64,000 nucleotides of DNA. It comes from Gordius albopunctatus (Eukaryota). The notes under the pieces were generated by a model. That model ran no database searches. It saw only the letters and a list, made by a program, of their open reading frames with translations, and was not told the origin of the DNA. Location of the stretch: the NCBI GenBank assembly GCA_964276515.1, contig OZ193910.1:7006001-7070000 (forward strand), in the 5' to 3' direction. Shown here piece after piece: positions 3,001-27,341 of this stretch. A program made the position numbers and the translations under genes. How positions within the stretch are numbered: the first letter of the stretch is position 1; each line of letters opens with the position of its first letter.

Positions 3001-6000
3001 ATGATAGCTATATGGTTGAACAAAAAAATTGAAAAAATTTTGAGGTCGAAAAAAATATTTTTTTTCATATTCTTTCGTAAGGGAGATGAAAAAATCTTTA
3101 AAAGTTATTAAATATTCTTAGCATTTTGTCCTTGTTAGAATCTTGATAGGAATTTTTGCGTGGGGGGATGTTTTAGATTGAGAGAAATTAAAATTTAGGT
3201 GTTGCGTTTATATTGTTTCAATATCTCTTTATAAGCGTGTCTCTAGTTTTAGTGAAACAAGCTCTATGCGATCGTGATTTAGAGTTAATAATTTTTGATG
3301 ACTGATCAAAAAAATGTTTTTCAAGGAATTCATCTCTTATACGGAAAACTTTAATGAGAGCTATATGGTTGAACAAAAAAATTGAAAAAATTTTGAGGTC
3401 GAAAAAAATATTTTTTTTCATATTCTTTCGAAAGGGAGATGAAAAAATCTTTAAAAGTTATTAAATATTCTTAGCATTTTGTCCTTGTTAGAATCTTGAT
3501 AGGAATCTTTGCGTGGGGGGATGTTTTAGATTGAGAGAAATTAAAATTTAGGTGTTGCGTTTATATTGTTTCAATATCGCTTTATAAGCGTGTCTCTAGT
3601 TTTAGTGAAACAAGCTCTATGCGATCGTGATTTAGAGTTAATAATTTTTGATGACTGATCAAAAAAATGTTTTTCAAGGAATTCATCTCTTATACGGAAA
3701 ACTTTAATGAGAGCTATATGGTTGAACAAAAAAAATTAAAACAATTTCGAGGTCGAAAAAAATATTATTTTTCATATTCTTTCGAAAGGGAGATGAAAAA
3801 ATGTTTAAAAGTTAGTAAATATTCTTAGAATTTTGTCCTTGTTAGAATCTTGATAGGAATTTTTGCGTTGGCGATGTTTGAGATTGAGAGAAATTAAAAT
3901 TTTCGTGTGGCGTTTAGATTGATTCAATATCGCTTTATAAGCGTGTCTCTAGTTTTAGTGAAACAAGCTCTATGCGATCGTGATTTAGAGTTAATAATTT
4001 TTGATGACTGATCAAAAAAATGTTTTTCAAGGAATTCATCTCTTATACCGAAAACTTTCATGAGAGCTATATGGTTGAACAAAAAAAATTAAAACAATTT
4101 TGAGGTCGAAAAAAATATTATTTTTCATATTCTTTCGAAAAGGAGATGAAAAAAGAATTTTTGCGTGGGGGATGTTTTAGATTGAGAGAAATTAAAATTT
4201 CGGTGTTGAGTTTATATTGTTTCAATATCGCTTTATAAGCGTGTCTCTAGTTTTAGTGAAACAAGCTCTATGCGATCGTGATTTAGAGTTAATAATTTTT
4301 GATGACTGATCAAAAAAATGTTTTTCAAGGAATTCACCTCTTATACCAAAAACTTTCATGAGAACTATATGGTTGAACAAAAAAATTGAAAAAATTTTGA
4401 GGTCGAAAAAAATATTATTTTTCATATTTTTTCGAAAGGGAGATGAAAAAATCTTTAAAAGTTAGTAAATATTCTTAGCATTTTGTCCTTGTTAGAATAT
4501 TGATAGAAATTTATGCGTGGGGGGATGTTTTAGATTGAGAGAAATTAAAATTTAGGTGTTGCGTTTATATTGTTTCAATATCGCTTTATAAGCGTGTCTC
4601 TAGTTTTAGTGTAACAAGCTCTATGCGATCGTGATTTAGAGTTAATAATTTTTGATGACTGATCAAAAAAATGTTTTTCAAGCAATTCACCTCTTATACC
4701 GAAAACTTTCATGAGAGCTATATGGTTGAACAAAAAAATTGAAAAAATTTTGAGGTCGAAAAAAATATTATTTTTCAAATTCTTTCGAAAGGGAGATGAA
4801 AAAATCTTTAAAAGTTAGTAAATATTCTTAGAATTTTGTCCTTGTTAGAATATTGATAGAAATTTATGCGTGTGGGGATGTTTTAGATTGAGAGAAATTA
4901 AAATTTAGGTGTTGCGTTTATATTGTTTCAATATCGCTTTATAAGCGTGTCTCTAGTTTTAGTGAAACAAGCTCTATGCGATCGTGATTTAGAGTTAATA
5001 ATTTTTGATGACTGATCAAAAAAATGTTTTTCAAGGAATTCACCTCTTATACCGAAAACTTTCATGAGAACTATATGGTTGAACAAAAAAATTAAAACAA
5101 TTTTGAGGTCGAAAAAAATATTATTTTTCAAATTCTTTCGAAAGGGAGATGAAAAAATGTTTAAAAGTTAGTAAATATTCTTAGAATTTTGTCCTTGTTA
5201 GAATCTTGATAGGAATTTTTGCGTTGGCGATGTTTGAGATTGAGAGAAATTAAAATTTTCGTGTGGCGTTTAGATTGATTCAATATCGCTTTATAAGCGT
5301 GTCTCTAGTTTTAGTGAAACAAGCTCTATGCGATCGTGATTTAGAGTTAATAATTTTTGATGACTGATCAAAAAAATGTTTTTCAAGGAATTCATCTCTT
5401 ATACCGAAAACTTTCATGAGAGCTATATGGTTGAACAAAAAAAATTAAAACAATTTTGAGGTCGAAAAAAATATTATTTTTCATATTCTTTCGAAAAGGA
5501 GATGAAAAAAGAATTTTTGCGTGGGGGATGTTTTAGATTGAGAGAAATTAAAATTTAGGTGTTGAGTTTATATTGTTTCAATATCGCTTTATAAGCGTGT
5601 CTCTAGTTTTAGTGAAACAAGCTCTATGCGATCGTGATTTAGAGTTAATAATTTTTGATGACTGATCAAAAAAATGTTTTTCAAGGAATTCACCTCTTAT
5701 ACCAAAAACTTTCATGAGAACTATATGGTTGAACAAAAAAATTGAAAAAATTTTGAGGTCGAAAAAAATATTATTTTTCATATTTTTTCGAAAGGGAGAT
5801 GAAAAAATCTTTAAAAGTTAGTAAATATTCTTAGCATTTTGTCCTTGTTAGAATATTGATAGAAATTTATGCGTGGGGGGATGTTTTAGATTGAGAGAAA
5901 TTAAAATTTAGGTGTTGCGTTTATATTGTTTCAATATCGCTTTATAAGCGTGTCTCTAGTTTTAGTGTAACAAGCTCTATGCGATCGTGATTTAGAGTTA

Positions 6001-9000
6001 ATAATTTTTGATGACTGATCAAAAAAATGTTTTTCAAGCAATTCACCTCTTATACCGAAAACTTTCATGAGAGCTATATGGTTGAAAAAAAAAATTAAAA
6101 AATTTTCAGGTCGAAAAAAATATTATTTTTCAAATTCTTTCGAAAGGGAGATGAAAAAATCTTTAAAAGTTAGTAAATATTCTTAGCATTTTGTCCTTGT
6201 TAGAATCTTGATAGGAATTTATGCGTGGGGGGATGTTTTAGATTGAGAGAAATTAAAATTTTCGTGTTGCGTTTAGATTGATTCAATATCGCTTTATAAG
6301 CGTGTCTCTAGTTTTAGTGAAACAAGCTCTATGCGATCGTGATTCAGAGTTAATAATTTTTGATGACTGATCAAAAAAATGTTTTTCAAGGAATTCATCT
6401 CTTATACGGAAAACTTTCATGAGAGCTATATGGTTGAACAAAAAAAATTAAAACAATTTCGAGGTCGAAAAAAATATTATTTTTCATATTCTTTCGAAAG
6501 GGAGATGAAAAAATCTTTAAAAGTTAGTAAATATTCTTAGAATTTTGTCCTTGTTAGAATCTTGATAGGAATTTTTGCGTTGGCGATGTTTGAGATTGAG
6601 AGAAATTAAAATTTTCGTGTGGCGTTTAGATTGATTCAATATCGCTTTATAAGCGTGTCTCTAGTTTTAGTGAAACAAGCTCTATGCGATCGTGATTTAG
6701 AGTTAATAATTTTTGATGACTGATCAAAAAAATGTTTTTCAAGGAATTCACCTTTTATAACGAAAACTTTCATGAGAACTATATGGTTGAACAAAAAAAT
6801 TAAAACAATTTTGAGGTCGAAAAAAATATTATTTTTCATATTCTTTCGAAAGGGAGATGAAAAAATCTTTAAAAGTTAGTAAATATTCTTAGCATTTTGT
6901 CCTTTCTTGATAGGAATTTTTGCGTGGGGGATGTTTGAGATTGAAAGAAATTAAAATTTTCGTGTTGCGTTTATATTGTTTCAATATCCCTTTATAAGCG
7001 TGTCTCTAGTTTTAGTGAAACAAGCTCTATGCGATCGTGATTTACAGTTAATAATTTTTGATGACTGATCAAAAAAATGTTTTTCAAGGAATTCACCTCT
7101 TATACCGAAAACTTTCATGAGAGCTATATGGTTGAACAAAAAAATTGAAAAAATTTTGAGGTCGAAAAAAATATTATTTTTCAAATTCTTTCGAAAGGGA
7201 GATGAAAAAATCTTTAAAAGTTAGTAAATATTCTTAGAATTTTGTCCTTGTTAGAATCTTGATAGGAATTTTTGCGTTGGCGATGTTTGAGATTGAGAGA
7301 AATTAAAATTTTCGTGTGGCGTTTAGATTGATTCAATATCGCTTTATAAGCGTGTCTCTAGTTTTAGTGAAACAAGCTCTATGCGATCGTGATTTAGAGT
7401 TAATAATTTTTGATGACTGATCAAAAAAATGTTTTTCAAGGAATTCATCTCTTATACGGAAAACTTTAATGAGAGCTATATGGTTGAACAAAAAAATTGA
7501 AAAAATTTTGAGGTCGAAAAAAATATTTTTTTTCATATTCTTTCGTAAGGGAGATGAAAAAATCTTTAAAAGTTATTAAATATTCTTAGCATTTTGTCCT
7601 TGTTAGAATCTTGATAGGAATTTTTGCGTGGGGGGATGTTTTAGATTGAGAGAAATTAAAATTTAGGTGTTGCGTTTATATTGTTTCAATATCTCTTTAT
7701 AAGCGTGTCTCTAGTTTTAGTGAAACAAGCTCTATGCGATCGTGATTTAGAGTTAATAATTTTTGATGACTGATCAAAAAAATGTTTTTCAAGGAATTCA
7801 TCTCTTATACGGAAAACTTTCATGAGAGCTATATGGTTGAACAAAAAAAATTAAAACAATTTCGAGGTCGAAAAAAATATTATTTTTCATATTCTTTCGA
7901 AAGGGAGATGAAAAAATCTTTAAAAGTTAGTAAATATTCTTAGAATTTTGTCCTTGTTAGAATCTTGATAGGAATTTTTGCGTTGGCGATGTTTGAGATT
8001 GAGAGAAATTAAAATTTTGGTGTGGCGTTTAGATTGATTCAATATCGCTTTATAAGCGTGTCTCTAGTTTTAGTGAAACAAGCTCTATGCGATCGTGATT
8101 TAGAGTTAATAATTTTTGATGACTGATCAAAAAAATGTTTTTCAAGGAATTCATCTCTTATACGGAAAACTTTAATGATAGCTATATGGTTGAACAAAAA
8201 AATTGAAAAAATTTTGAGGTCGAAAAAAATATTTTTTTTCATATTCTTTCGTAAGGGAGATGAAAAAATCTTTAAAAGTTATTAAATATTCTTAGCATTT
8301 TGTCCTTGTTAGAATCTTGATAGGAATTTTTGCGTGGGGGGATGTTTTAGATTGAGAGAAATTAAAATTTAGGTGTTGCGTTTATATTGTTTCAATATCT
8401 CTTTATAAGCGTGTCTCTAGTTTTAGTGAAACAAGCTCTATGCGATCGTGATTTAGAGTTAATAATTTTTGATGACTGATCAAAAAAATGTTTTTCAAGG
8501 AATTCATCTCTTATACGGAAAACTTTAATGAGAGCTATATGGTTGAACAAAAAAATTGAAAAAATTTTGAGGTCGAAAAAAATATTTTTTTTCATATTCT
8601 TTCGAAAGGGAGATGAAAAAATCTTTAAAAGTTATTAAATATTCTTAGCATTTTGTCCTTGTTAGAATCTTGATAGGAATCTTTGCGTGGGGGGATGTTT
8701 TAGATTGAGAGAAATTAAAATTTAGGTGTTGCGTTTATATTGTTTCAATATCGCTTTATAAGCGTGTCTCTAGTTTTAGTGAAACAAGCTCTATGCGATC
8801 GTGATTTAGAGTTAATAATTTTTGATGACTGATCAAAAAAATGTTTTTCAAGGAATTCATCTCTTATACGGAAAACTTTAATGAGAGCTATATGGTTGAA
8901 CAAAAAAAATTAAAACAATTTCGAGGTCGAAAAAAATATTATTTTTCATATTCTTTCGAAAGGGAGATGAAAAAATCTTTAAAAGTTAGTAAATATTCTT

Positions 9001-12000
9001 AGAATTTTGTCCTTGTTTGAATCTTGATAGGAATTTTTGCGTTGGCGATGTTTGAGATTGAGAGAAATTAAAATTTTCGTGTGGCGTTTAGATTGATTCA
9101 ATATCGCTTTATAAGCGTGTCTCTAGTTTTAGTGAAATAAGCTCTATGCGATCGTGATTTAGAGTTAATAATTTTTGATGACTGATCAAAAAAATGTTTT
9201 TCAAGGAATTCATCTCTTATACGGAAAACTTTAATGATAGCTATATGGTTGAACAAAAAAATTGAAAAAATTTTGAGGTCGAAAAAAATATTTTTTTTCA
9301 TATTCTTTCGTAAGGGAGATGAAAAAATCTTTAAAAGTTATTAAATATTCTTAGCATTTTGTCCTTGTTAGAATCTTGATAGGAATTTTTGCGTGGGGGG
9401 ATGTTTTAGATTGAGAGAAATTAAAATTTAGGTGTTGCGTTTATATTGTTTCAATATCTCTTTATAAGCGTGTCTCTAGTTTTAGTGAAACAAGCTCTAT
9501 GCGATCGTGATTTAGAGTTAATAATTTTTGATGACTGATCAAAAAAATGTTTTTCAAGGAATTCATCTCTTATACGGAAAACTTTCATGAGAGCTATATG
9601 GTTGAACAAAAAAAATTAAAACAATTTCGAGGTCGAAAAAAATATTATTTTTCATATTCTTTCGAAAGGGAGATGAAAAAATCTTTAAAAGTTAGTAAAT
9701 ATTCTTAGAATTTTGTCCTTGTTAGAATCTTGATAGGAATTTTTGCGTTGGCGATGTTTGAGATTGAGAGAAATTAAAATTTTGGTGTGGCGTTTAGATT
9801 GATTCAATATCGCTTTATAAGCGTGTCTCTAGTTTTAGTGAAACAAGCTCTATGCGATCGTGATTTAGAGTTAATAATTTTTGATGACTGATCAAAAAAA
9901 TGTTTTTCAAGGAATTCATCTCTTATACGGAAAACTTTAATGATAGCTATATGGTTGAACAAAAAAATTGAAAAAATTTTGAGGTCGAAAAAAATATTTT
10001 TTTTCATATTCTTTCGTAAGGGAGATGAAAAAATCTTTAAAAGTTATTAAATATTCTTAGCATTTTGTCCTTGTTAGAATCTTGATAGGAATTTTTGCGT
10101 GGGGGGATGTTTTAGATTGAGAGAAATTAAAATTTAGGTGTTGCGTTTATATTGTTTCAATATCTCTTTATAAGCGTGTCTCTAGTTTTAGTGAAACAAG
10201 CTCTATGCGATCGTGATTTAGAGTTAATAATTTTTGATGACTGATCAAAAAAATGTTTTTCAAGGAATTCATCTCTTATACGGAAAACTTTAATGAGAGC
10301 TATATGGTTGAACAAAAAAATTGAAAAAATTTTGAGGTCGAAAAAAATATTTTTTTTCATATTCTTTCGAAAGGGAGATGAAAAAATCTTTAAAAGTTAT
10401 TAAATATTCTTAGCATTTTGTCCTTGTTAGAATCTTGATAGGAATCTTTGCGTGGGGGGATGTTTTAGATTGAGAGAAATTAAAATTTAGGTGTTGCGTT
10501 TATATTGTTTCAATATCGCTTTATAAGCGTGTCTCTAGTTTTAGTGAAACAAGCTCTATGCGATCGTGATTTAGAGTTAATAATTTTTGATGACTGATCA
10601 AAAAAATGTTTTTCAAGGAATTCATCTCTTATACGGAAAACTTTAATGAGAGCTATATGGTTGAACAAAAAAAATTAAAACAATTTCGAGGTCGAAAAAA
10701 ATATTATTTTTCATATTCTTTCGAAAGGGAGATGAAAAAATCTTTAAAAGTTAGTAAATATTCTTAGAATTTTGTCCTTGTTAGAATCTTGATAGGAATT
10801 TTTGCGTTGGCGATGTTTGAGATTGAGAGAAATTAAAATTTTCGTGTGGCGTTTAGATTGATTCAATATCGCTTTATAAGCGTGTCTCTAGTTTTAGTGA
10901 AATAAGCTCTATGCGATCGTGATTTAGAGTTAATAATTTTTGATGACTGATCAAAAAAATGTTTTTCAAGGAATTCATCTCTTATACGGAAAACTTTAAT
11001 GATAGCTATATGGTTGAACAAAAAAATTGAAAAAATTTTGAGGTCGAAAAAAATATTTTTTTTCATATTCTTTCGTAAGGGAGATGAAAAAATCTTTAAA
11101 AGTTATTAAATATTCTTAGCATTTTGTCCTTGTTAGAATCTTGATAGGAATTTTTGCGTGGGGGGATGTTTTAGATTGAGAGAAATTAAAATTTAGGTGT
11201 TGCGTTTATATTGTTTCAATATCTCTTTATAAGCGTGTCTCTAGTTTTAGTGAAACAACCTCTATGCGATCGTGATTTAGAGTTAATAATTTTTGATGAC
11301 TGATCAAAAAAATGTTTTTCAAGGAATTCATCTCTTATACGGAAAACTTTAATGAGAGCTATATGGTTGAACAAAAAAATTGAAAAAATTTTGAGGTCGA
11401 AAAAAATATTTTTTTTCATATTCTTTCGAAAGGGAGATGAAAAAATCTTTAAAAGTTATTAAATATTCTTAGCATTTTGTCCTTGTTAGAATCTTGATAG
11501 GAATCTTTGCGTGGGGGGATGTTTTAGATTGAGAGAAATTAAAATTTAGGTGTTGCGTTTATATTGTTTCAATATCGCTTTATAAGCGTGTCTCTAGTTT
11601 TAGTGAAACAAGCTCTATGCGATCGTGATTTAGAGTTAATAATTTTTGATGACTGATCAAAAAAATGTTTTTCAAGGAATTCATCTCTTATACGGAAAAC
11701 TTTAATGATAGCTATATGGTTGAACAAAAAAATTGAAAAAATTTTGAGGTCGAAAAAAATATTATTTTTCAAATTCTTTCGAAAGGGAGATGAAAAAATG
11801 TTTAAAAGTTAGTAAATATTCTTAGAATTTTGTCCTTGTTAGAATCTTGATAGGAATTTTTGCGTTGGCGATGTTTGAGATTGAGAGAAATTAAAATTTT
11901 CGTGTGGCGTTTAGATTGATTCAATATCGCTTTATAAGCGTGTCTCTAGTTTTAGTGAAACAAGCTCTATGCGATCGTGATTTAGAGTTAATAATTTTTG

Positions 12001-14746
12001 ATGACTGATCAAAAAAATGTCTTTCAAGGAATTCATCTCTTATACCGAAAACTTTCATGAGAGCTATATGGTTGAACAAAAAAAATTAAAACAATTTTGA
12101 GGTCGAAAAAAATATTATTTTTCATATTCTTTCGAAAAGGAGATGAAAAAAGAATTTTTGCGTGGGGGATGTTTTAGATTGAGAGAAATTAAAATTTAGG
12201 TGTTGAGTTTATATTGTTTCAATATCGCTTTATAAGCGTGTCTCTAGTTTTAGTGAAACAAGCTCTATGCGATCGTGATTTAGAGTTAATAATTTTTGAT
12301 GACTGATCAAAAAAATGTTTTTCAAGGAATTCACCTCTTATACCAAAAACTTTCATGAGAACTATATGGTTGAACAAAAAAATTGAAAAAATTTTGAGGT
12401 CGAAAAAAATATTATTTTTCATATTCTTTCGAAAGGGAGATGAAAAAATCTTTAAAAGTTAGTAAATATTCTTAGAATTTTGTCCTTGTTAGAATCTTGA
12501 TAGGAATTTTTGCGTTGGCGATGTTTGAGATTGAGAGAAATTAAAATTTTCGTGTGGCGTTTAGATTGATTCAATATCGCTTTATAAGCGTGTCTCTAGT
12601 TTTAGTGAAACAAGCTCTATGCGATCGTGATTTAGAGTTAATAATTTTTGATGACTGATCAAAAAAATGTTTTTCAAGGAATTCATCTCTTATACGGAAA
12701 ACTTTAATGATAGCTATATGGTTGAACAAAAAAATTGAAAAAATTTTGAGGTCGAAAAAAATATTTTTTTTCATATTCTTTCGTAAGGGAGATGAAAAAA
12801 TCTTTAAAAGTTATTAAATATTCTTAGCATTTTGTCCTTGTTAGAATCTTGATAGGAATTTTTGCGTTGGCGATGTTTGAGATTGAGAGAAATTAAAATT
12901 TTCGTGTGGCGTTTAGATTGATTCAATATCGCTTTATAAGCGTGTCTCTAGTTTTAGTGAAACAAGCTCTATGCGATCGTGATTTAGAGTTAATAATTTT
13001 TGATGACTGATCAAAAAAATGTTTTTCAAGGAATTCATCTCTTATACGGAAAACTTTAATGATAGCTATATGGTTGAACAAAAAAATTGAAAAAATTTTG
13101 AGGTCGAAAAAAATATTTTTTTTCATATTCTTTCGTAAGGGAGATGAAAAAATCTTTAAAAGTTATTAAATATTCTTAGCATTTTGTCCTTGTTAGAATC
13201 TTGATAGGAATTTTTGCGTGGGGGGATGTTTTAGATTGAGAGAAATTAAAATTTAGGTGTTGCGTTTATATTGTTTCAATATCTCTTTATAAGCGTGTCT
13301 CTAGTTTTAGTGAAACAACCTCTATGCGATCGTGATTTAGAGTTAATAATTTTTGATGACTGATCAAAAAAATGTTTTTCAAGGAATTCACCTCTTATAC
13401 CAAAAACTTTCATGAGAACTATATGGTTGAACAAAAAAATTGAAAAAATTTTGAGGTCGAAAAAAATATTATTTTTCATATTTTTTCGAAAGGGAGATGA
13501 AAAAATCTTTAAAAGTTAGTAAATATTCTTAGCATTTTGTCCTTGTTAGAATATTGATAGAAATTTATGCGTGGGGGGATGTTTTAGATTGAGAGAAATT
13601 AAAATTTTCGTGTGGCGTTTAGATTGATTCAATATCGCTTTATAAGCGTGTCTCTAGTTTTAGTGTAACAAGCTCTATGCGATCGTGATTTAGAGTTAAT
13701 AATTTTTGATGACTGATCAAAAAAATGTTTTTCAAGCAATTCACCTCTTATACCGAAAACTTTCATGAGAGCTATATGGTTGAACAAAAAAATTGAAAAA
13801 ATTTTGAGGTCGAAAAAAATATTATTTTTCAAATTCTTTCGAAAGGGAGATGAAAAAATCTTTAAAAGTTAGTAAATATTCTTAGAATTTTGTCCTTGTT
13901 AGAATATTGATAGAAATTTATGCGTGTGGGGATGTTTTAGATTGAGAGAAATTAAAATTTAGGTGTTGCGTTTATATTGTTTCAATATCGCTTTATAAGC
14001 GTGTCTCTAGTTTTAGTGAAACAAGCTCTATGCGATCGTGATTTAGAGTTAATAATTTTTGATGACTGATCAAAAAAATGTTTTTCAAGGAATTCACCTC
14101 TTATACCGAAAACTTTCATGAGAACTATATGGTTGAACAAAAAAATTAAAACAATTTTGAGGTCGAAACAAATATTATTTTTCATATTCTTTCGAAAGGG
14201 AGATGAAAAAATCTTTAAAAGTTAGTAAATATTCTTAGCATTTTGTCCTTTCTTGATAGGAATTTTTGCGTGGAGGATGTTTGAGATTGAGAGAAATTAA
14301 AATTTTCGTGTTGCGTTTAGATTGATTCAATATCGCTTTATAAGCGTGTCTCTAGTTTTAGTGAAACAAGCTCTATGCGATCGTGATTTACAGTTAATAA
14401 TTTTTGATGACTGATCAAAAAAATGTTTTTCAAGGAATTCACCTCTTATACCGAAAACTTTCATGAGAGCTATATGGTTGAACAAAAAAAATTAAAACAA
14501 TTTTGAGGTCGAAAAAAATATTATTTTTCATATTCTTTCGAAAGGGAGATGAAAAAAGAATTTTTGCGTGGGGGATGTTTGAGATTGAGAGAAATTAAAA
14601 TTTTCGTGTGGCGTTTAGATTGATTAAAAATCGCTTTATAAGCGTGTCTCTAGTTTTAGTGAAACAAGCTCTATGTGATCGTGATTTAGAGTTAATAATT
14701 TTTGATGACTGATCAAAAAAATGTTTTTCAAGGAATTCATCTCTTA
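1..14746 (+). repeat. SatA tandem satellite array, ~352-353-bp monomer (~42 copies), forward orientation
   Basis: Motifs such as GCTCTATGCGATCGTGATTTAGAG recur every 352-353 bp (ORF-track starts 2865/3218, 4222/4575/4928). Shorter monomers carry ~8-bp or ~56-bp deletions. Confidence 0.99.
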
Positions 14747-14768
14747 GGGCCCGTCTTAATATACGCTT
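14747..14768 (+). repeat. Left terminal inverted repeat
   Basis: GGGCCCGTCTTAATATACGCTT matches the reverse complement of 16750-16771 at 17/22 positions by eye. Confidence 0.88.
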
Positions 14769-14796
14769 CAACTTCAAGCGCGCCATAATTTTTTGT

Positions 14797-14817
14797 GTCT
14801 AAATATGCGATTCAACT
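14797..14817 (+). repeat. Left subterminal copy of the TIR motif
   Basis: GTCTAAATATGCGATTCAACT versus GTCTTAATATACGCTTCAACT (14753-14773), 18/21. Confidence 0.8.
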
Positions 14818-14819
14818 AA

Positions 14820-16046
14820 ATGGATGCAATATCAATATTAATTCTTTTACTAATTGAGTATGCATCAAAAAAATCTACTAGAAGAAAAAAAATATATTAT
14901 ATAAACAAAGACATGTTTTTGGGGAGTTTTCTAATATGATTAAAAATATTTTAAAGGATGATGAGTTATTTTATGATTATAAAAGGATGCAACAAAGCAC
15001 ATTTTACTATATCTTGTCTCATATTGAAGAAGATATAAATCCTTCTAATGATAAAGTTGAATGGATAAGTCCAGCTGAAAGGTTGATGGTTACTTTAAGG
15101 TATATTATAAGAATAGATTATATTTAATTTTCAATTTGGATATTTAATATTGGGGGACTGTTTCAGGCAATTAGCCTTTTCTTTTAGGATAAGTAGAAGT
15201 GCAATAGCCTATATAGTGGATGAAGTTACTGAAGCTATTGTAAAAAACTTGATGAAGATTCACATACCATACCCAATCATGAAAATTGGAAAAAAGTAGG
15301 CATTATTTATTATAAAATAAATTATTCTTTAGATAGCAAAAGATTATGAGGAGATATGGAACTTTACAAATTGTTTGGGAGCAGTTGATGGAAGGCATAT
15401 AAGGATTATCAAACCCGCAAAAGCAGGAAGCCGTTTCTATAACTACAAAGGATATCATTCCATTGTATTGATGGCTGTCTCAGATGCCAAATATAAATTT
15501 ACTTATATTGATGTAGGAGCCCTAGGGTGTCAAAGTGACGGAGGGGTTTGGAAACACTGTTCCCTGTATAAAAAGATAGAGGAAAATAGAAATTTTTTAC
15601 CACCTGATACCTATTTAACTAATACTCCTGTAAAAGTCCCATATGTATTCATAGCTGATGAAGCTTTTCAGCTATCAGAGTTTCTTATGAAACCATATCC
15701 AAGCTCTTCATTAAATGATGACAAAGTTATGTACAACAAAAGATTGGCAAGAGCCAGGAATTCTGTAGAATGTTCATTTGGAATATTGGCTAAAAAATTT
15801 GGGATTCTTGAGACCCCAATAAAAACCAAGCCTAAAAAGGCTGAAAAAATAATTCAAACAATTTGTATTTTTTATAATATTTTATTAGATAAGGAATTGC
15901 CTTCTTATGCTTATAATTTACACAATGCCCAAATTGAAAATACCCAACAGTTATTGCCTGAGAACAACCCATCTTCTCACCGTGCTCAGAATATTAGAGA
16001 ATTATTTAGTCAATATTTTAAATGTCATTCTTTACCTTGGCATTAA
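14820..16046 (+). pseudogene. Harbinger/PIF (HARBI1-like, DDE_Tnp_4 type) transposase; 3 exons (~14820-15099, 15140-15295, 15333-16046), disrupted
   Basis: Reconstructed motifs: GEF..DDELFYDYKRM, ISPAERLMVTLR|YLILGDCFRQLAFSFRISRSAI, WKK|IAKDYEEIWNFTNCLGAVDGRHI, FYNYKGYHSIVLMAVSDAKYKF, ADEAF..LMKPY, YNKRLARARNSVECSFGIL (D, D, E triad present). Introns 15100-15139 (GT..GG) and 15296-15332 (GT..AG). The reading needs +1 base near the A-run 14885-14892 and near 15272-15275. Confidence 0.9.
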
Positions 16047-16085
16047 AACCATTATAATTTTTTTAATTGTTTAATGAGTGCTCTT

Positions 16086-16157
16086 AATAAATTGTTATTC
16101 CTTTTAAGGGATGTCAAGTTTAGCTTAGAGTTGTAATAATACACATAAACTTTTATT
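16086..16157. terminator. Candidate polyadenylation signals of the two convergent genes
   Basis: AATAAA at 16086-16091 (+), downstream of the transposase stop. TTTATT at 16152-16157 (AATAAA on -), downstream of the ORF2 stop. AT-rich context makes chance plausible. Confidence 0.4.
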
Positions 16158-16203
16158 CATCATATAAAATGTATCATCAACTAATATATAAAAAATGCAA
16201 TAA

Positions 16204-16639
16204 TCAATTCTGTTTTAAATTTTCTAACAGTTGCAATATATTTAATTTGAAAAGTAACATATTGTTATCATTCAGAGATTTGAAGTCTGCTAATAGTGAA
16301 TCCAGAAAGATCTTTTCTGGATAACTAGAAATTTTGAGCTTTTCTTCTATATTTATTAACCTAACCCATCTCTTAAGATTTTCCACTTGGTTTTGCATTG
16401 TTCCACTATTAAAATTATAACATTTATTATAAAATATAACCTGGCAAGTTGCAATCATTGGCTACCAGTTGCCATGATTTGGCAACCTCTAGTTTATTAC
16501 TGTGAAGTTCATTTTCATCATCCCAAATAATGATTTGAGATTCCACACTTCTAATGAGTGTTTTTGTTTGTTCTTGCCTAATTTAAGCATTTATTATGCA
16601 TTTAATAATTATTTTATTAGCTTACTCTATATTTTGCAT
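16204..16639 (-). pseudogene. Harbinger ORF2: MADF (Myb/SANT-like) DNA-binding protein with C-terminal BESS-like motif, disrupted
   Basis: Splicing 16639-16626, 16577-16441 and 16405 onward (GT-AG introns of 48 and 35 bp) gives MQNIEQEQTKTLIRSVESQIIIWDDENELHSNKLEVAKSWQLVANDCNLPVEQCKTKWKILRDGLG* with the three MADF tryptophans and a WKxLRD motif; stop at 16358-16356. In another frame, IFLDSLLADFKSLNDNNMLLFKLNILQLL (ending at 16204) resembles a BESS motif. Confidence 0.82.
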
Positions 16640-16686
16640 CCTGCAAATCGCGAATGAAATGAAGTAACAAAGAAGCAAAAATGAAG

Positions 16687-16705
16687 TGAAGCGTATATTA
16701 AGACG
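16687..16705 (-). repeat. Right subterminal copy of the TIR motif
   Basis: TGAAGCGTATATTAAGACG is the exact reverse complement of 14752-14770 (CGTCTTAATATACGCTTCA), 19/19. Confidence 0.9.
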
Positions 16706-16749
16706 CGGCTATGTTTTAACATGTGTTCGCTTTTTTTGCTGCGAGTCAA

Positions 16750-16771
16750 AATCTTATTTTAAGACGCACCC
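16750..16771 (-). repeat. Right terminal inverted repeat
   Basis: AATCTTATTTTAAGACGCACCC; its reverse complement begins GGG..CGTCTTAA like the left end. Confidence 0.88.
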
Positions 16772-19222
16772 TAAGAGATGAATTCCTTGAAAAACATTTT
16801 TTTGATCAGTCATCAAAAATTATTAACTCTAAATCACGATCGCATAGAGCTTGTTTCACTAAAACTAGAGACACGCTTATAAAGCGATATTGAATCAATC
16901 TAAACGCCACACGAAAATTTTAATTTCTCCCAATCTCAAACATCGCCAACGCAAAAATTCCTATCAAGATTCTAACAAGGACAAAATTCTAAGAATATTT
17001 ACTAACTTTTAAAGATTTTTTCATCTCCCTTTCGAAAGAATTTGAAAAATAATATTTTTTTCGACCTCAAAATTTTTTCAATTTTTTTGTTCAACCATAT
17101 AGCTCTCATGAAAGTTTTCGGTATAAGAGGTGAATTCCTTGAAAAACATTTTTTTGATCAGTCATCAAAAATTATTAACTGTAAATCACGATCGCATAGA
17201 GCTTGTTTCACTAAAACTAGAGACACGCTTATAAAGCGATATTGAAACAATATAAACGCAACACGAAAATTTTAATTTCTCTCAATCTCAAACATCCCCC
17301 ACGCAAAAATTCCTATCAAGAAAGGACAAAATGCTAAGAATATTTACTAACTTTTAAAGATTTTTTCATCTCCCTTTCGAAAGAATATGAAAAATAATAT
17401 TTTTTTCGACCTCAAAATTGTTTTAATTTTTTTGTTCAACCATATAGTTCTCATGAAAGTTTTCGGTATAAAAGGTGAATTCCTTGAAAAACATTTTTTT
17501 GATCAGTCATCAAAAATTATTAACTCTAAATCACGATCGCATAGAGCTTGTTTCACTAAAACTAGAGACACGCTTATAAAGCGATATTGAATCAATCTAA
17601 ACGCCACACGAAAATTTTAATTTCTCTCAATCTCAAACATCGCCAACGCAAAAATTCCTATCAAGATTCTAACAAGGACAAAATTCTAAGAATATTTACT
17701 AACTTTTAAAGATTTTTTCATCTCCCTTTCGAAAGAATATGAAAAATAATATTTTTTTCGACATCGAAATTGTTTTAATTTTTTTTGTTCAACCATATAG
17801 CTCTCATGAAAGTTTTCCGTATAAGAGATGAATTCCTTGAAAAACATTTTTTTGATCAGTCATCAAAAATTATTAACTCTGAATCACGATCGCATAGAGC
17901 TTGTTTCACTAAAACTAGAGACACGCTTATAAAGCGATATTGAATCAATCTAAACGCCACACGAAAATTTTAATTTCTCTCAATCTCAAACATCGCCAAC
18001 GCAAAAATTCCTATCAAGATTCTAACAAGGACAAAATTCTAAGAATATTTACTAACTTTTAAAGATTTTTTCATCTCCCTTTCGAAAGAATATAAAAAAT
18101 AATAATTTTTTCGACCTCAAAATTTTTTCAATTTTTTTGTTCAACCATATAGCTCTCATGAAAGTTTTCGGTATAAGAGGTGAATTCCTTGAAAAACATT
18201 TTTTTGATCAGTCATCAAAAATTATTAACTCTAAATCACGATCGCATAGAGCTTGTTTCACTAAAACTAGAGACACGCTTATAAAGCGATATTGAATCAA
18301 TCAAACGCCACACGAAAATTTTAATTTCTCTCAATCTCAAACATCGCCAACGCAAAAATTCCTATCAAGATTCTAACAAGGACAAAATTCTAAGAATATT
18401 TACTAACTTTTAAAGATTTTTTCATCTCCCTTTCGAAAGAATATGAAAAATAATATTTTTTTCGACCTCGAAATTGTTTTAATTTTTTTTGTTCAACCAT
18501 ATAGTTCTCATGAAAGTTTTCGGTATAAAAGGTGAATTCCTTGAAAAACATTTTTTTGATCAGTCATCAAAAATTATTAACTCTAAATCACGATCGCATA
18601 GAGCTTGTTTCACTAAAACTAGAGACACGCTTATAAAGCGATATTGAATCAATCAAACGCCACACGAAAATTTTAATTTCTCTCAATCTCAAACATCGCC
18701 AACGCAAAAATTCCTATCAAGATTCTAACAAGGACAAAATTCTAAGAATATTTACTAACTTTTAAAGATTTTTTCATCTCCCTTTCGAAAGAATATGAAA
18801 AATAATATTTTTTTCGACCTCGAAATTGTTTTAATTTTTTTTGTTCAACCATATAGCTCTCATGAAAGTTTTCCGTATAAGAGATGAATTCCTTGAAAAA
18901 CATTTTTTTGATCAGTCATCAAAAATTATTAACTCTAAATCACGATCGCATAGAGCTTGTTTCACTAAAACTAGAGACACGCTTATAAAGAGATATTGAA
19001 ACAATATAAACGCAACACCTAAATTTTAATTTCTCTCAATCTAAAACATCCCCCCACGCAAAAATTCCTATCAAGATTCTAACAAGGACAAAATGCTAAG
19101 AATATTTAATAACTTTTAAAGATTTTTTCATCTCCCTTACGAAAGAATATGAAAAAAAATATTTTTTTCGACCTCAAAATTTTTTCAATTTTTTTGTTCA
19201 ACCATATAGCTCTCATTAAAGT
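16772..19222 (-). repeat. SatA inverted block (~7 monomers, 2451 bp)
   Basis: Sequence is the reverse complement of SatA (TAAGAGATGAATTCCTTG...). The repeat ORFs switch to the + strand here (17042, 17387). Confidence 0.98.
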
Positions 19223-22200
19223 GCTATATGGTTGAACAAAAAAAATTAAAACAATTTCGAGGTCGAAAAAAATATTATTTTTCATATTCTTTCGAAAGGG
19301 AGATGAAAAAATCTTTAAAAGTTAGTAAATATTCTTAGAATTTTGTCCTTGTTAGAATCTTGATAGGAATTTTTGCGTTGGCGATGTTTGAGATTGAGAG
19401 AAATTAAAATTTTCGTGTGGCGTTTAGATTGATTCAATATCGCTTTATAAGCGTGTCTCTAGTTTTAGTGAAACAAGCTCTATGCGATCGTGATTTAGAG
19501 TTAATAATTTTTGATGACTGATCAAAAAAATGTTTTTCAAGGAATTCACCTCTTATACCGAAAACTTTCATGAGAGCTATATGGTTGAACAAAAAAATTG
19601 AAAAAATTTTGAGGTCGAAAAAAATATTATTTTTCAAATTCTTTCGAAAGGGAGATGAAAAAATCTTTAAAAGTTAGTAAATATTCTTAGAATTTTGTCC
19701 TTGTTAGAATCTTGATAGGAATTTTTGCGTTGGCGATGTTTGAGATTGAGAGAAATTAAAATTTTCGTGTGGCGTTTAGATTGATTCAATATCGCTTTAT
19801 AAGCGTGTCTCTAGTTTTAGTGAAACAAGCTCTATGCGATCGTGATTTAGAGTTAATAATTTTTGATGACTGATCAAAAAAATGTTTTTCAAGGAATTCA
19901 TCTCTTATACGGAAAACTTTCATGAGAGCTATATGGTTGAACAAAAAAAATTAAAACAATTTCGAAATCGAAAAAAATATTATTTTTCATATTCTTTTGA
20001 AAGGGAGATGAAAAAATCTTTAAAAGATTTTAAATATTCTTAGCATTTTGTCCTTGTTAGAATCTTGATAGGAACTTTTGCGTGGGGGGATGTTTGAGAT
20101 TGAGAGAAATTAGAATTTTCGTGTTGCGTTTAGATTGTTTCAATATCGCTTTATAAGCGTGTCTCTAGTTTTAGTGAAACAAGCTCCATGCGATCGTGAT
20201 TTAGAGTTAATAATTTTTGATGACTGATCAAAAAAAATGTTTTTCAAGGAATTAACATTTTTTACCGAAAACTTTCATGAGAGCTATATGGTTGAAGAAA
20301 AAATTGAAAAAATTTAGAGGTCGAAAAAAATATTATTTTTCGTATTCTTTCGAAAGGGAGATGAAAAAATCTTTAAAAGATTTTAAATATTCTTAGCATT
20401 TTGTCCTTGTTAGAATCTTGATAGGAACTTTTGCGTGGGGGGATGTTTTAGATTGAGAGAAATTAGAATTTTCGTGTTGCGTTTAGATTGTTTCAATATC
20501 GCTTTATAAGCGTGTTTCTAGTTTTAGTGAAACAGGCTCCATGCGATCGTGATTTAGAGTTAATAATTTTTGATGACTGATCAAAAAAAATGTTTTTCAA
20601 GGAATTAACATTTTTTACCGAAAACTTTCATGAGAGCTATATGGTTGAAGAAAAAATTGAAAAAATTTAGAGGTCGAAAAAAATATTATTTTTCGTATTC
20701 TTTCGAAAGGGAGATGAAAAAATCTTTAAAAGATTTTAAATATTCTTAGCATTTTGTCCTTGTTAGAATCTTGATAGGAACTTTTGCGTGGGGGGATGTT
20801 TTAGATTGAGAGAAATTAGAATTTTCGTGTTGCGTTTAGATTGTTTCAATATCGCTTTATAAGCGTGTTTCTAGTTTTAGTGAAACAGGCTCTATGCGAT
20901 CGTGATTTAGAGTTAATAATTTTTGATGACTGATCAAAAAAATATTTTTCAAGGAATTCACCTCTTATACCGAAAACTTTCATGAGAGCTATATGGTTGA
21001 ACAAAAAAATTGAAAAAATTTTGAGGTCGAAAAAAATATTATTTTTCATATTCTTTAGAAAGGGAGATGAAAAAATCATTAAAAGATTTTAAATATTCTT
21101 AGCATTTTGTTCTTGTTAGAATCTTGATAGGAACTTTTGCGTGGGGGGATGTTTTAGATTGAGAGAAATTAGAATTTTCGTGTTGCGTTTAGATTGTTTC
21201 AATATCGCTTTATAAGCGTGTCTCTAGTTTTAGTGAAACAGGCTCTATGCGATCGTGATTCAGAGTTAATAATTTTTGATGACTGATCAAAAAAATGTTT
21301 TTAAAGGAATTCACCTCTTATACCGAAAACTTTCATGAGAGCTATATGGTTGAACAAAAAAATTGAAAAAATTTTGAGGTCGAAAAAAATATTATTTTTC
21401 ATATTCTTTCGAAAGGGATGATGAAAAAACCTTTAAAAGATAGTAAATACTCATAGAATTTTGTCCTTGTTAGAATCTTGATAGGAACTTTTGCGTGGGG
21501 TGATGTTTTAGATTGAGAGAAATTAAAATTTTCGTTTTGCGTTTAGATTGTTTCAATATCGCTTTAAAAGCGTGTCTCTAGTTTTAGTGAAACAAGCTCT
21601 ATGCGATCGTGATTTAGAGTTAATAATTTTTGATGACTGATCAAAAAAAATGTTTTTCAAGGAATTAACATTTTTTACCGAAAACTTTCATGAGAGCTAT
21701 ATGGTTGAACAAAAAAATTGAAAAAATTTCGAGGTCGAAAAAAATATTATTTTTCATATTCTTTTGAAAGGGAGATGAAAAAATCTTTAAAAGATTTTAA
21801 ATATTCTTAGCATTTTGTCCTTGTTAGAATCTTGATAGGAACTTTTGCGTGGGGAGATGTTTTAGATTGAGAGAAATTAGAATTTTCGTGTTGCGTTTAG
21901 ATTGTTTCAATATCGCTTTATAAGCGTGTCTCTAGCTTTAGTTAAACAAGCTCCATGCGATCGTGATTTAGAGTTAATAATTTTTGATGACTGATCAAAA
22001 AAAATGTTTTTCAAGGAATTAACATTTTTTACCGAAAACTTTCATGAGAGCTATATGGTTGAAGAAAAAATTGAAAAAATTTAGAGGTCGAAAAAAATAT
22101 TATTTTTCATATTCTTTCGAAAGGGAGATGAAAAAATCTTTAAAAGTTAGTAAATATTCATAGCATTTTGTCCTTGTTAGAATCTTGATAGGAACTTTTG

Positions 22201-25200
22201 CGTGGGAGGATGTTTTAGATTGAGAGAAATTAGAATTTTCGTATTGCATTTAGATTGTTTCAATATCGCTTTATAAGCGTGTTTCTAGTTTTAGTGAAAC
22301 AAGCTCTATGCGATCGTGATTCAGAGTTAATAATTTTTGATGACTGATCAAAAAAATGTTTTTAAAGGAATTCACCTCTTATACCGAAAACTTTCATGAG
22401 AGCTATATGGTTGAAGAAAAAATTGAAAAAATTTAGAGGTCGAAAAAAATATTATTTTTCGTATTCTTTCGAAAGGGAGATGAAAAAATCTTTAAAAGAT
22501 TTTAAATATTCTTAGCATTTTGTCCTTGTTAGAATCTTGATAGGAACTTTTGCGTGGGGGGATGTTTTAGATTGAGAGAAATTAGAATTTTCGTGTTGCG
22601 TTTAGATTGTTTCAATATCGCTTTATAAGCGTGTCTCTAGTTTTAGTGAAACAAGCTCCATGCGATCGTGATTTAGAGTTAATAATTTTTGATGACTGAT
22701 CAAAAAAAATGTTTTTAAAGGAATTAACATTTTTTACCGAAAACTTTCATGAGAGCTATATGGTTGAAGAAAAAATTGAAAAAATTATGAGGTCGAAAAA
22801 AATATTATTTTTCATATTCTTTTGAAAGGGAGATGAAAAAATCTTTAAAAGATTTTAAATATTCTTAGCATTTTGTCCTTGTTAGAATCTTGATAGGAAC
22901 TTTTGCGTGGGGGGATGTTTTAGATTGAGAGAAATTAGAATTTTCGTGTTGCGTTTAGATTGTTTCAATATCGCTTTATAAGCGTGTCTCTAGTTTTAGT
23001 GAAACAAGCTCCATGCGATCGTGATTTAGAGTTAATAATTTTTGATGACTGATCAAAAAAATGTTTTTAAAGGAATTCACCTCTTATACCCAAAACTTTC
23101 ATGAGAGCTATATGGTTGAACAAAAAAATTGAAAAAATTTTGAGGTCGAAAAAAATATTATTTTTCATATTCTTTCGAAAGGGATGATGAAAAAATCTTT
23201 AAAAGTTAGTAAATATTCTTAGCATTTTATCCTTGTTAGAATCTTGATAGGAATTTTTGCGTGGGGGGATGTTTAGATTGAGAGAAATTAAAATTTTCGT
23301 GTTGCGTTTAGATTGTTTCAATATCGCTTTATAAGCGTGTTTCTAGTTTTAGTGAAACAGGCTCTATGCGATCGTGATTCAGAGTTAATAATTTTTGATG
23401 ACTGATCAAAAAAATGTTTTTAAAGGAATTCACCTCTTATACCGAAAACTTTCATGAGAGCTATATGGTTGAACAAAAAAATTGAAAAAATTTTGAGGTC
23501 GAAAAAAATATTATTTTTCATATTCTTTCGAAAGGGATGATGAAAAAACCTTTAAAAGATAGTAAATACTCATAGAATTTTGTCCTTGTTAGAATCTTGA
23601 TAGGAACTTTTGCGTGGGGTGATGTTTTAGATTGAGAGAAATTAGAATTTTCGTGTTGCGTTTAGATTGTTTCAATATCGCTTTATAAGCGTGTCTCTAG
23701 TTTTAGTGAAACAAGCTCCATGCGATCGTGATTTAGAGTTAATAATTTTTGATGACTGATCAAAAAAAATGTTTTTCAAGGAATTAACATTTTTTACCGA
23801 AAACTTTCATGAGAGCTATATGGTTGAAGAAAAAATTGAAAAAATTTAGAGGTCGAAAAAAATATTATTTTTCGTATTCTTTCGAAAGGGAGATGAAAAA
23901 ATCTTTAAAAGATTTTAAATATTCTTAGCATTTTGTCCTTGTTAGAATCTTGACAGGAACTTTTGCGTGGGGGGATGTTTTAGATTGAGAGAAATTAGAA
24001 TTTTCGTGTTGCGTTTAGATTGTTTCAATATCGCTTTATAAGCGTGTCTCTAGTTTTAGTGAAACAAGCTCCATGCGATCGTGATTTAGAGTTAATAATT
24101 TTTGATGACTGATCAAAAAAAATGTTTTTCAAGGAATTAACATTTTTTACCGAAAACTTTCATGAGAGCTATATGGTTGAAGAAAAAATTGAAAAAATTA
24201 TGAGGTCGAAAAAAATATTATTTTTCATATTATTTCGAAAGGGAGATGAAAAAATCTTTAAAGGTTAGTAAATACTCTTAGAATTTTGTCCTTGTTTGAA
24301 TCTTGATAGGAACTTTTGCGTGGGGTGATGTTTTAGATTGAGAGAAATTAAAATTTTCGTGCTGCGTTTAGATTGTTTCAATATCGCTTTATAAGTGTGT
24401 CTCTAGTTTTAGTGAAACAAGCTCCATGCGATCGTGATTTAGAGTTAATAATTTTTGATGACTGATCAAAAAAAATGTTTTTAAAGGAATTAACATTTTT
24501 TACCGAAGAATTTCTTAGAGCTATATGGTTGAACAAAAAAATTGATAAAATTTTGAGGTCGAAAAAATATTATTTTTCATATTCTTTCGAAAGGGATATG
24601 AAAAAATCTTTAAAAGTTAGTAAATATTCTTAGCATTTTATCCTTGTTAGAATCTTGATAGGAATTTTTGCGTGGGGGGATGTTTTAGATTGAGAGAAAT
24701 TAAAATTTAGGTGTTGCGTTTATATTGTTTCAATATCGCTTTATAAGCGTGTCTCTAGTTTTAGTGAAACAAGCTCTATGCGATCGTGATTTAGAGTTAA
24801 TAATTTTTGATGACTGATCAAAAAAAATGTTTTTCAAGGAATTAACATTTTTTACCGAAAACTTTCATGAGAGCTATATGGTTGAAGAAAAAATTGAAAA
24901 AATTTAGAGGTCGAAAAAAATATTATTTTTCGTATTCTTTCGAAAGGGAGATGAAAAAATCTTTAAAAGATTTTAAATATTCTTAGCATTTTGTCCTTGT
25001 TAGAATCTTGACAGGAACTTTTGCGTGGGGGGATGTTTTAGATTGAGAGAAATTAGAATTTTCGTGTTGCGTTTAGATTGTTTCAATATCGCTTTATAAG
25101 CGTGTCTCTAGTTTTAGTGAAACAAGCTCCATGCGATCGTGATTTAGAGTTAATAATTTTTGATGACTGATCAAAAAAAATGTTTTTCAAGGAATTAACA

Positions 25201-27141
25201 TTTTTTACCGAAAACTTTCATGAGAGCTATATGGTTGAAGAAAAAATTGAAAAAATTATGAGGTCGAAAAAAATATTATTTTTCATATTATTTCGAAAGG
25301 GAGATGAAAAAATCTTTAAAGGTTAGTAAATACTCTTAGAATTTTGTCCTTGTTTGAATCTTGATAGGAACTTTTGCGTGGGGTGATGTTTTAGATTGAG
25401 AGAAATTAAAATTTTCGTGCTGCGTTTAGATTGTTTCAATATCGCTTTATAAGTGTGTCTCTAGTTTTAGTGAAACAAGCTCCATGCGATCGTGATTTAG
25501 AGTTAATAATTTTTGATGACTGATCAAAAAAAATGTTTTTAAAGGAATTAACATTTTTTACCGAAGAATTTCTTAGAGCTATATGGTTGAACAAAAAAAT
25601 TGATAAAATTTTGAGGTCGAAAAAATATTATTTTTCATATTCTTTCGAAAGGGATATGAAAAAATCTTTAAAAGTTAGTAAATATTCTTAGCATTTTATC
25701 CTTGTTAGAATCTTGATAGGAATTTTTGCGTGGGGGGATGTTTTAGATTGAGAGAAATTAAAATTTAGGTGTTGCGTTTATATTGTTTCAATATCGCTTT
25801 ATAAGCGTGTCTCTAGTTTTAGTGAAACAAGCTCTATGCGATCGTGATTTAGAGTTAATAATTTTTGATGACTGATCAAAAAAATGTTTTTAAAGGAATT
25901 CACCTCTTATACCGAAAACTTTCATGAGAGCTATATGGTTGAACAAAAAAAATTAAAACAATTTTGAGGTCGAAAAAAATATTATTTTTCATATTCTTTC
26001 GAAAGGGAGATGAAAAAAGAATTTTTGCGTGGGGGATGTTTGAGATTGAGAGAAATTAAAATTTTCGTGTTGCGTTTAGATTGTTTCAATATCGCTTTAT
26101 AAGCGTGTTTCTAGTTTTAGTGAAACAGGCTCTATGCGATCGTGATTTAGAGTTAATAATTTTTGATGACTGATCAAAAAAAATGTTTTTCAAGGAATTA
26201 ACATTTTTTACCGAAGAATTTCTTAGAGCTATATGGTTGAACAAAAAAATTGATAAAATTTTGAGGTCGAAAAAATATTGATTTTCATATTCTTTCGAAA
26301 GGGAGATGAAAAAATCTTTAAAAGTTAGTAAATATTCTTAGAATTTTGTCCTTGTTTGAATCTTGATAGGAACTTTTGCGTGGGGTGATGTTTTAGATTG
26401 AGAGAAATTAAAATTTTCGTGCTGCGTTTAGATTGTTTCAATATCGCTTTATAAGTGTGTCTCTAGTTTTAGTGAAACAAGATCCATGCGATCGTGATTT
26501 AGAGTTAATAATTTTTGATGACTGATCAAAAAAAATGTTTTTAAAGGAATTAACATTTTTTACCGAAGAATTTCTTAGAGCTATATGGTTGAACAAAAAA
26601 ATTGATAAAATTTTGAGGTCGAAAAAATATTGATTTTCATATTCTTTCGAAAGGGAGATGAAAAAATCTTTAAAAGTTAGTAAATATTCTTAGCATTTTG
26701 TCCTTGTTAGAATCTTGATAGGAATTTATGCGTGGGAGGATGTTTTAGATTGAGAGAAATTAAAATTTAGGTGTTGCGTTTATATTGTTTCAATATCGCT
26801 TTATAAGCGTGTCTCTAGTTTTTGTGAAACAAGCTCTATGCGATCGTGATTTAGAGTTAATAATTTTTGATGACTGATCAAAAAAATGTTTTTAAAGGAA
26901 TTCACCTCTTATACCGAAAACTTTCATGAGAGCTATATGGTTGAACAAAAAAATTGAAAAAATTTTGAGGTCGAAAAAAATATTATTTTTCATATTCTTT
27001 CGAAAGGGATGATGAAAAAACCTTTAAAAGATAGTAAATACTCATAGAATTTTGTCCTTGTTAGAATCTTGATAGGAACTTTTGCGTGGGGTGATGTTTT
27101 AGATTGAGAGAAATTAAAATTTTCGTGTTGCGTTTAGATTG
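19223..27141 (+). repeat. SatA forward array (~22 monomers), mostly a distinct variant subfamily after ~19960
   Basis: Orientation reverts at GCTATATGGTTGAAC (19223). Diagnostic variants GGAACTTTTG, AATTAGAATT, AAAGATTTTAAA and GGAATTAACATTTTTTACCG appear. Confidence 0.98.
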
Positions 27142-27341
27142 NNNNNNNNNNNNNNNNNNNNNNNNNNNNNNNNNNNNNNNNNNNNNNNNNNNNNNNNNNN
27201 NNNNNNNNNNNNNNNNNNNNNNNNNNNNNNNNNNNNNNNNNNNNNNNNNNNNNNNNNNNNNNNNNNNNNNNNNNNNNNNNNNNNNNNNNNNNNNNNNNNN
27301 NNNNNNNNNNNNNNNNNNNNNNNNNNNNNNNNNNNNNNNNN
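27142..27341. other. Assembly gap (200 N)
   Basis: Run of exactly 200 N, probably a fixed-size scaffold spacer. Confidence 0.99.

Follow-up and report, generated by a model that had tools for sequence, protein, structure and literature searches.

Mirrored flanks of a PIF/Harbinger element point to a probable small inversion within a satellite array of Gordius albopunctatus

Introduction

Inversions are generated by DNA transposons through ectopic recombination or hybrid element insertion, and those made by Galileo carry a copy at each end and exchanged target site duplications (TSDs), as described in the accessible parts of PMC2775673. PIF/Harbinger transposons show a target preference that extends from 9 bp in plants to 15 bp in vertebrates (accessible sections of PMC2836001). 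The subject of this report is a PIF/Harbinger element that lies in a satellite array of Gordius albopunctatus. The stretch analysed, termed the window, consists of 64,000 nucleotides (contig OZ193910.1 of assembly GCA_964276515.1, positions 7,006,001 to 7,070,000, forward strand), and all positions given below are positions within it. The window was read as assembled sequence; its structure and junctions are taken from the assembly letters.

The element is a decayed copy of 2,025 bp on the plus strand (14747–16771), delimited by its ends, its domains and comparison with contigs, and is the sole non-satellite insert found in the window. It interrupts SatA, a satellite with a 353-bp monomer that spans 1–27141, and its two flanks mirror each other. 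This mirrored arrangement was probably left behind by an inversion of small size that took place in situ, with both breakpoints at or beside the target site of the element. It is quite probable that the inversion was made by a transposon through one route or another.

Element junctions and the inverted satellite block

The SatA array runs forward from 1 to 14746 (plus strand), and its last monomer, c, ends at the target triplet TTA (14744–14746, plus strand). The element is followed directly by TAA (16772–16774), which is the target TTA of monomer f on the other strand, i.e. an exchanged TSD. Read towards the element, the flank is GGAATTCATCTCTTA at both ends. The left and right flanks are identical for 70 nt, and the first difference lies 71 nt from the junction. 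A first-pass annotation of this DNA had reported a Harbinger element with TTA before it, TAA after it, reverse-complement flanks and no ordinary direct TSD, and this description of the junctions is exact. It had further taken the right flank to be the reverse complement of the left one, which holds for the 70 nt at the junction but not beyond, where an alignment of 2,457 columns between the inverted satellite and the left flank contains 93 mismatches and 65 gap columns. The arrangement TTA[element]TAA, in which both sides share one upstream flank, has the reverse-complement TSD of an inversion mediated by a transposable element; the inverted TSD would thus be accounted for, because an exchanged TSD is expected at the breakpoint of a transposon-made inversion.

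The reversed satellite is finite, a point that is absent from the first-pass annotation. It consists of seven monomers, after which the array turns forward at 19222/19223. By monomer comparison, the inverted block (16772–19222, minus strand) is 2,451 bp in length and comprises six whole monomers plus monomer d without its first 8 nt; SatA then runs forward again with monomer g, which is without its first 20 nt (19223–27141, plus strand). This distal breakpoint is head-to-head, with arms and a 12-nt spacer (19200–19233), and is blunt, with no microhomology and no insert. Its two sides begin at +9 and +21 past the target TTA (8 and 20 nt lost), and the chance that both would lie no more than 23 nt from the target TTA is ~0.004, for an interval chosen post hoc. 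There is no element sequence at 19222/19223: the core 8-mer of the terminal inverted repeats (TIRs) is found in the window only inside the element, and the second copy that marks the other breakpoint of known transposon-mediated inversions is absent here.

A mirror or fold-back copy was considered and rejected, as the block differs both from the left flank (see above) and from the right flank, with 24 mismatches in 690 columns. The monomers of the block match types found 8–17 kb leftward and just rightward, and there are four private substitutions in the seven monomers. When the block is flipped back to its presumed ancestral orientation, monomer c is followed by d and f by g, successions that also occur in nearby parts of the array. 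Successions were counted for the 16 monomers that have a c/f-like 3′ end; these are non-independent, the monomers being related by duplication. Of the 14 cases in the left array, nine have a d-type successor, one a g-type and four another type, and in the block plus right array the successor is g-type in both of two cases.

Origin of the inversion and choice of target

A route with two copies and later excision of the distal one is given about an even chance. The steps proposed are a reconstruction; observed directly are the anatomy of the junctions, the size and non-mirror status of the block, and the identity and decay of the element. One copy would have entered the array by an ordinary insertion at a TTA. 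A second attack would have fallen on the same preferred TTA seven monomers off, in opposite orientation, either by insertion of a hybrid element that took its ends from both sister chromatids, or through a further insertion with subsequent recombination between the inverted copies. With either route the block would be flipped and the TSDs exchanged, which would leave TTA[element]TAA. The distal copy, then situated between non-matching TAA and TTA, would have been excised, and end-joining with loss of both triplets plus 8 and 20 nt would have created the blunt head-to-head join. Reuse of the site would be expected from an ordinary extended target preference together with the presence of the same site every 353 bp. 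The enzyme needed for mobility could have come in trans, because the family is multi-copy and the majority sequences of public runs are without the two transposase lesions of the window copy (see below). The trimmed distal join could stem from excision since, according to the accessible text of PMC4561436, mPing is excised by staggered cleavage at the TSD, and with non-matching TSDs there is less repair and there are more footprints.

Several points weigh against the two-copy route. It requires three events, and a remnant of the second copy was not found at the distal junction when the window was searched for the TIR core 8-mer. The same accessible text reports fairly precise repair in yeast for a TAA/TTA pairing, the one that the lost copy would have had, in contrast to the 8 + 20-nt loss here (PMC4561436). 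A 12-nt quasi-palindrome is centred ~15 nt past the TTA and could alone draw the distal break, though the monomer has many similar ones. A precise join would form a long palindrome, and the instability of long palindromes is invoked for the extra 8 + 20-nt loss; a literature search for papers on central deletions in palindromes found none. The succession counts are support and not proof, because the monomers are non-independent and f-like whole monomers are followed by a d-type monomer in three of six neighbours. It should also be pointed out that both junctions rest on the assembly; no bridging contig is among the pieces (32 of 2,577) and loose ends (24 of 282) listed, which speaks neither for nor against the structure.

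The same product would arise if the two ends of one element joined the same strand position in two monomers 2.45 kb apart, by a split-target (non-concerted) insertion or by one-ended re-insertion. The two freed ends would be trimmed and joined, and the inversion would be complete in one step. A tandem array offers the same half-site many times. One event would then replace three, the missing remnant of a second copy would need no explanation, and the contrast between two precise element junctions and a partner junction trimmed on both sides would fit. However, half-site insertions are known from integrase work, no report of a split-target insertion by PIF/Harbinger was found in literature searches, and as the product equals that of the two-copy route, nothing observed selects the split-target insertion, which is regarded as possible but somewhat doubtful. 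Perhaps one insertion was followed instead by repair, and transposase attacked only once: the right end would break, fold back on the left TIR, copy the left flank, switch template to another monomer and rejoin the array at the quasi-palindrome. The 70 identical nt beside both element junctions and the overlap of the distal junction with the 12-nt quasi-palindrome speak for repair of this kind, but it seems quite unlikely given TIRs that were not homogenised (5 of 22 nt differ), a junction that is blunt and without microhomology, and an array that opens past the junction with a g-type monomer and not with the d expected of an inverted duplication. An assembly artefact, where a mis-joined or fold-back read made the reversed block, has very little probability. 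The block lies in a satellite array, in a region that has a 200-N gap (27142–27341), and the structure depends on an assembly for which the listed pieces hold no junction-bridging contig; yet fold-back reads yield exact mirrors, which the block is not, the block has its own private substitutions (four in seven monomers), and an assembler would not create, at the far end, a blunt join that is trimmed and lies next to the target site.

A further explanation, which can coexist with an inversion, is that the family is specific for one SatA position and homes to heterochromatin or the centromere. The first-pass annotation had proposed such a satellite-site-specific, possibly centromere- or heterochromatin-targeting element from two end-joining events at the same TTA. 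Two events at that TTA are still the best reading, and the distal breakpoint beside the same TTA adds evidence for it, but the coincidence is only modest: there are 16–23 TTA/TAA triplets per monomer (five monomers counted), 18 of them in monomer f of the right flank, and a second event at the same triplet has p ~1/18 (~0.06) under uniform TWA use. The two inferred attacks on one of 18 triplets, both in the CATCTC variant of the monomer, would suit homing. Against it stand the small sample (n = 2), the single copy in 27 kb of SatA with none in the 36.6 kb of the second satellite, SatB, and the flanks of distant relatives, which are mostly unrelated to one another. Contigs of four public runs (X1, X4, X7 and X8) were aligned to the element region, and in X8 eight contigs run from the left end of the element into long flanks (median 255 nt, agreement 0.5) that are non-satellite and unlike one another, which is not what a transposon with most copies at one target would give. 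Copies elsewhere, the finding that the first-pass annotation had named as contrary to its proposal, are in part provided by these eight contigs, although they may include shorter relatives because the ends have greater depth than the interior. A high-depth right-end contig of X8 stops one base into the TSD, and this is read as several different flanks. Tethering by similarity between TIRs and satellite was rejected, as the element ends match the satellite no better than shuffled sequences do (186/300 and 120/300 shuffles reach the score). The claim of a satellite-specific element is therefore not upheld, and homing is judged improbable. Because of the 9–15-bp target preference, it is no surprise that the best site of a repeat is used again, and recurrent use of preferred sites by other transposable elements is described in the accessible part of PMC5932611.

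The element and its genes

The element is a PIF/Harbinger member, as indicated by its transposase, second gene and short TIRs. Both ends begin with GGG, and the left TIR (14747–14768, plus strand) matches the right one (16750–16771, minus strand) at 17 of 22 nt. An inverted-repeat search also revealed an exact 19-nt inverted copy of 14752–14770 at a sub-terminal position (16687–16705, minus strand). A TWA triplet abuts each end, but the two read TTA and TAA, where PIF/Harbinger elements have a 3-bp TWA duplication in direct orientation; exchange by the inversion would account for this. A 2-bp TA TSD was rejected, since in X8 contigs the left end is preceded by TAA and at the right end a contig breaks once the first T is passed (inferred from contig branching).

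The transposase gene (14897–16046, plus strand) was delineated by PF13359 and by tblastn of homologues. Its inferred exons are at ~14897–15099, 15140–15295 and 15333–16046, with the start not fixed. The product is of the DDE_Tnp_4 type (PF13359, E=7e-31); a match to HTH_Tnp_4 is below the cut-off. Among 196 candidates, 84 were homologues, the best with ~50% identity and some named HARBI1/ALP1-like; those with names are nearly all from arthropods. Alignment of the homologues shows the D, D and E motifs to be present and implies two short introns. A PDB sequence search returned nothing significant.

Downstream and antisense is a second gene, interrupted in the window copy. It encodes a BESS motif (16222–16308, minus strand; PF02944, E=2.4e-5, 24.5 bits, cut-off 21) and the N-terminal half of a MADF (Myb/SANT-like) domain (16448–16558, minus strand; PF10545, E=5e-4), the latter scoring just under the cut-off (20.8 vs 22 bits). 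The combination of MADF and BESS characterises insect transcription factors of the MADF-BESS family, and its presence here may hint at a transposon link of that family. BESS has no occurrence in the accessible text of PMC9710019 and occurs only in the references in that of PMC11893794.

The intact reading frames expected of an autonomous Harbinger are lacking, as both genes are broken. In the transposase gene the acceptor of intron 1 is GG (15138–15139), and the frame is shifted by 1 nt near 15268. The public runs differ at both places: an A is found at 15138 in three of the four (X8, X1 and X4; X7 has no listed depth there), and an extra A follows 15268 in all four. Compared with X8, the window copy has 27 substitutions and six gaps in 1,902 nt, based on six of eight listed pieces, one diverged low-depth piece and one half-depth variant having been left out. 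The differences from the X8 majority are scattered along the window copy, and its final 175 nt have none. Recombination would yield chimeric copies and hybrid insertion identical ones, and a single copy survives here. The family is multi-copy, as variant contigs along the element show several copies. Runs X7 and X8 contain both the element and SatA.

Relatives of the element

Runs X1 and X4 are from a second organism, and their contigs cover 28 of 30 bins of 14712–16806 with a related element, there being none at 16182–16321. Almost no X1 or X4 contigs (three and two) extend over the satellite ends. A close family of the element is thus present in the second organism, which might reflect common descent or horizontal transfer.

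Contig depth at the sub-terminal regions 14712–14851 and 16672–16741 is far above that of the element interior, and loose contig ends at 16676, 16696 and 16736 represent relatives with other right ends. This is consistent with abundant miniature inverted-repeat transposable elements of a Tourist-like type that have a common sub-terminal motif.

The exact 19-nt right-end pattern has no match in metagenome contigs, and 149 pattern matches in viral contigs include no relatives. Of 95 metagenome loci, 80 were kept, and all are distant (26–53% amino acid identity). Four of the 80 have MADF-like matches, and none has a BESS or satellite match. As these relatives are all distant and have no satellite match, they are uninformative on targeting by the family of the window element. 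Most have GGG ends and TWA-like triplets, and their flanks are mostly unlike one another. Both ends are available for five distinct relatives; an exact direct TWA TSD is found in two, a TSD with a one-base difference in two, and TTA/TAA with unrelated flanks in one, and mirrored flanks are found in none of the five. In one distant Harbinger family (L030-like, L004–L061) a C follows the right triplet in 8 of 10 listed rows, two pairs of which look duplicated, whereas the base before the left triplet varies; an asymmetric target preference is possible.

Satellite arrays of the window

The 200-N gap divides SatA from SatB, which has a 345-bp monomer and spans 27346–64000. Homology between the two satellites is evident (63% over 571 nt, E=2e-44), and their orientations on the two sides of the gap are opposite. 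At the position equivalent to the target site, SatB has no TWA, as judged by eye. Within SatA, a different subfamily is found at 19908–27141, starting two monomers past the distal breakpoint, and in 13 of its monomers TTT replaces the target TTA.

Higher-order repeats are present in 4046–14746 and 25910–26208. They are marked by a recurrent 298-bp monomer with a 55-nt deletion and, as a second marker, by 345-bp SatA monomers with a 7-nt deletion. Monomer c, which adjoins the left end of the element, is of the 298-bp type with the internal deletion and has three private substitutions; monomer f has one and monomer d none. An Rfam scan of 13700–29000 gave no matches.

Comparison with known systems

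Orientation switches in satellite arrays are common in long-read assemblies, and their cause can rarely be read at base level. In the window, both breakpoints of one satellite strand switch map to a transposon target site. This provides a signature for genome-wide searches, i.e. mirrored flanks at the ends of an element and, a whole number of monomers away, a head-to-head join that has been trimmed. The locus would extend transposon-made inversions to PIF/Harbinger elements. It is a single event in one assembly and brings no field-wide change, nor does it demonstrate a centromere-targeting transposon. If the split-target route were true, one Harbinger insertion would flip the monomers between half-sites and thereby seed an orientation switch, and satellite strand switches would have a direct cause in DNA transposons, at predictable sites; the surviving copy would be kept as a spacer between the arms of a long inverted repeat.

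In its basic features the element is like mPing/Ping/Pong and Harbinger3_DR, which, in the accessible texts of PMC2836001, PMC4561436 and PMC9710019, have two genes (a DDE transposase and a Myb/MADF protein), short TIRs, TWA and an extended target preference. It differs from them in having non-matching TSDs (TTA/TAA), two broken genes and an extra BESS motif. Reuse of one target through insertion preference recalls double insertion and R1-type site specificity, but the accessible part of PMC5932611 deals with tandem dimers of transposable elements at one site, whereas here the events concern different monomers and led to an inversion, and strict specificity is not shown.

Parallels are also found among transposon-made rearrangements. 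A Harbinger-made inversion inside a satellite array was not found in the open-access literature, and the locus is a nucleotide-resolved case of a known rearrangement class, in a Harbinger-in-satellite form that was not found described there. Alternative transposition of Ac/Ds and hybrid element insertion of P elements likewise have ends that join a nearby target in a non-standard manner and invert the DNA between (accessible parts of PMC2775673), but these elements belong to the hAT and P superfamilies, and literature searches yielded no such events for PIF/Harbinger. The same source describes inversion 2z3 of Drosophila buzzatii, where, as here, a DNA transposon (Galileo) lies at the breakpoint and the TSDs are exchanged and reverse complementary. 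In the Galileo case, however, the inversion is large and lies in unique DNA, and both of its breakpoints still carry a copy, whereas the window has one PIF/Harbinger copy, an inversion of 2.45 kb and both breaks at one position of a satellite.

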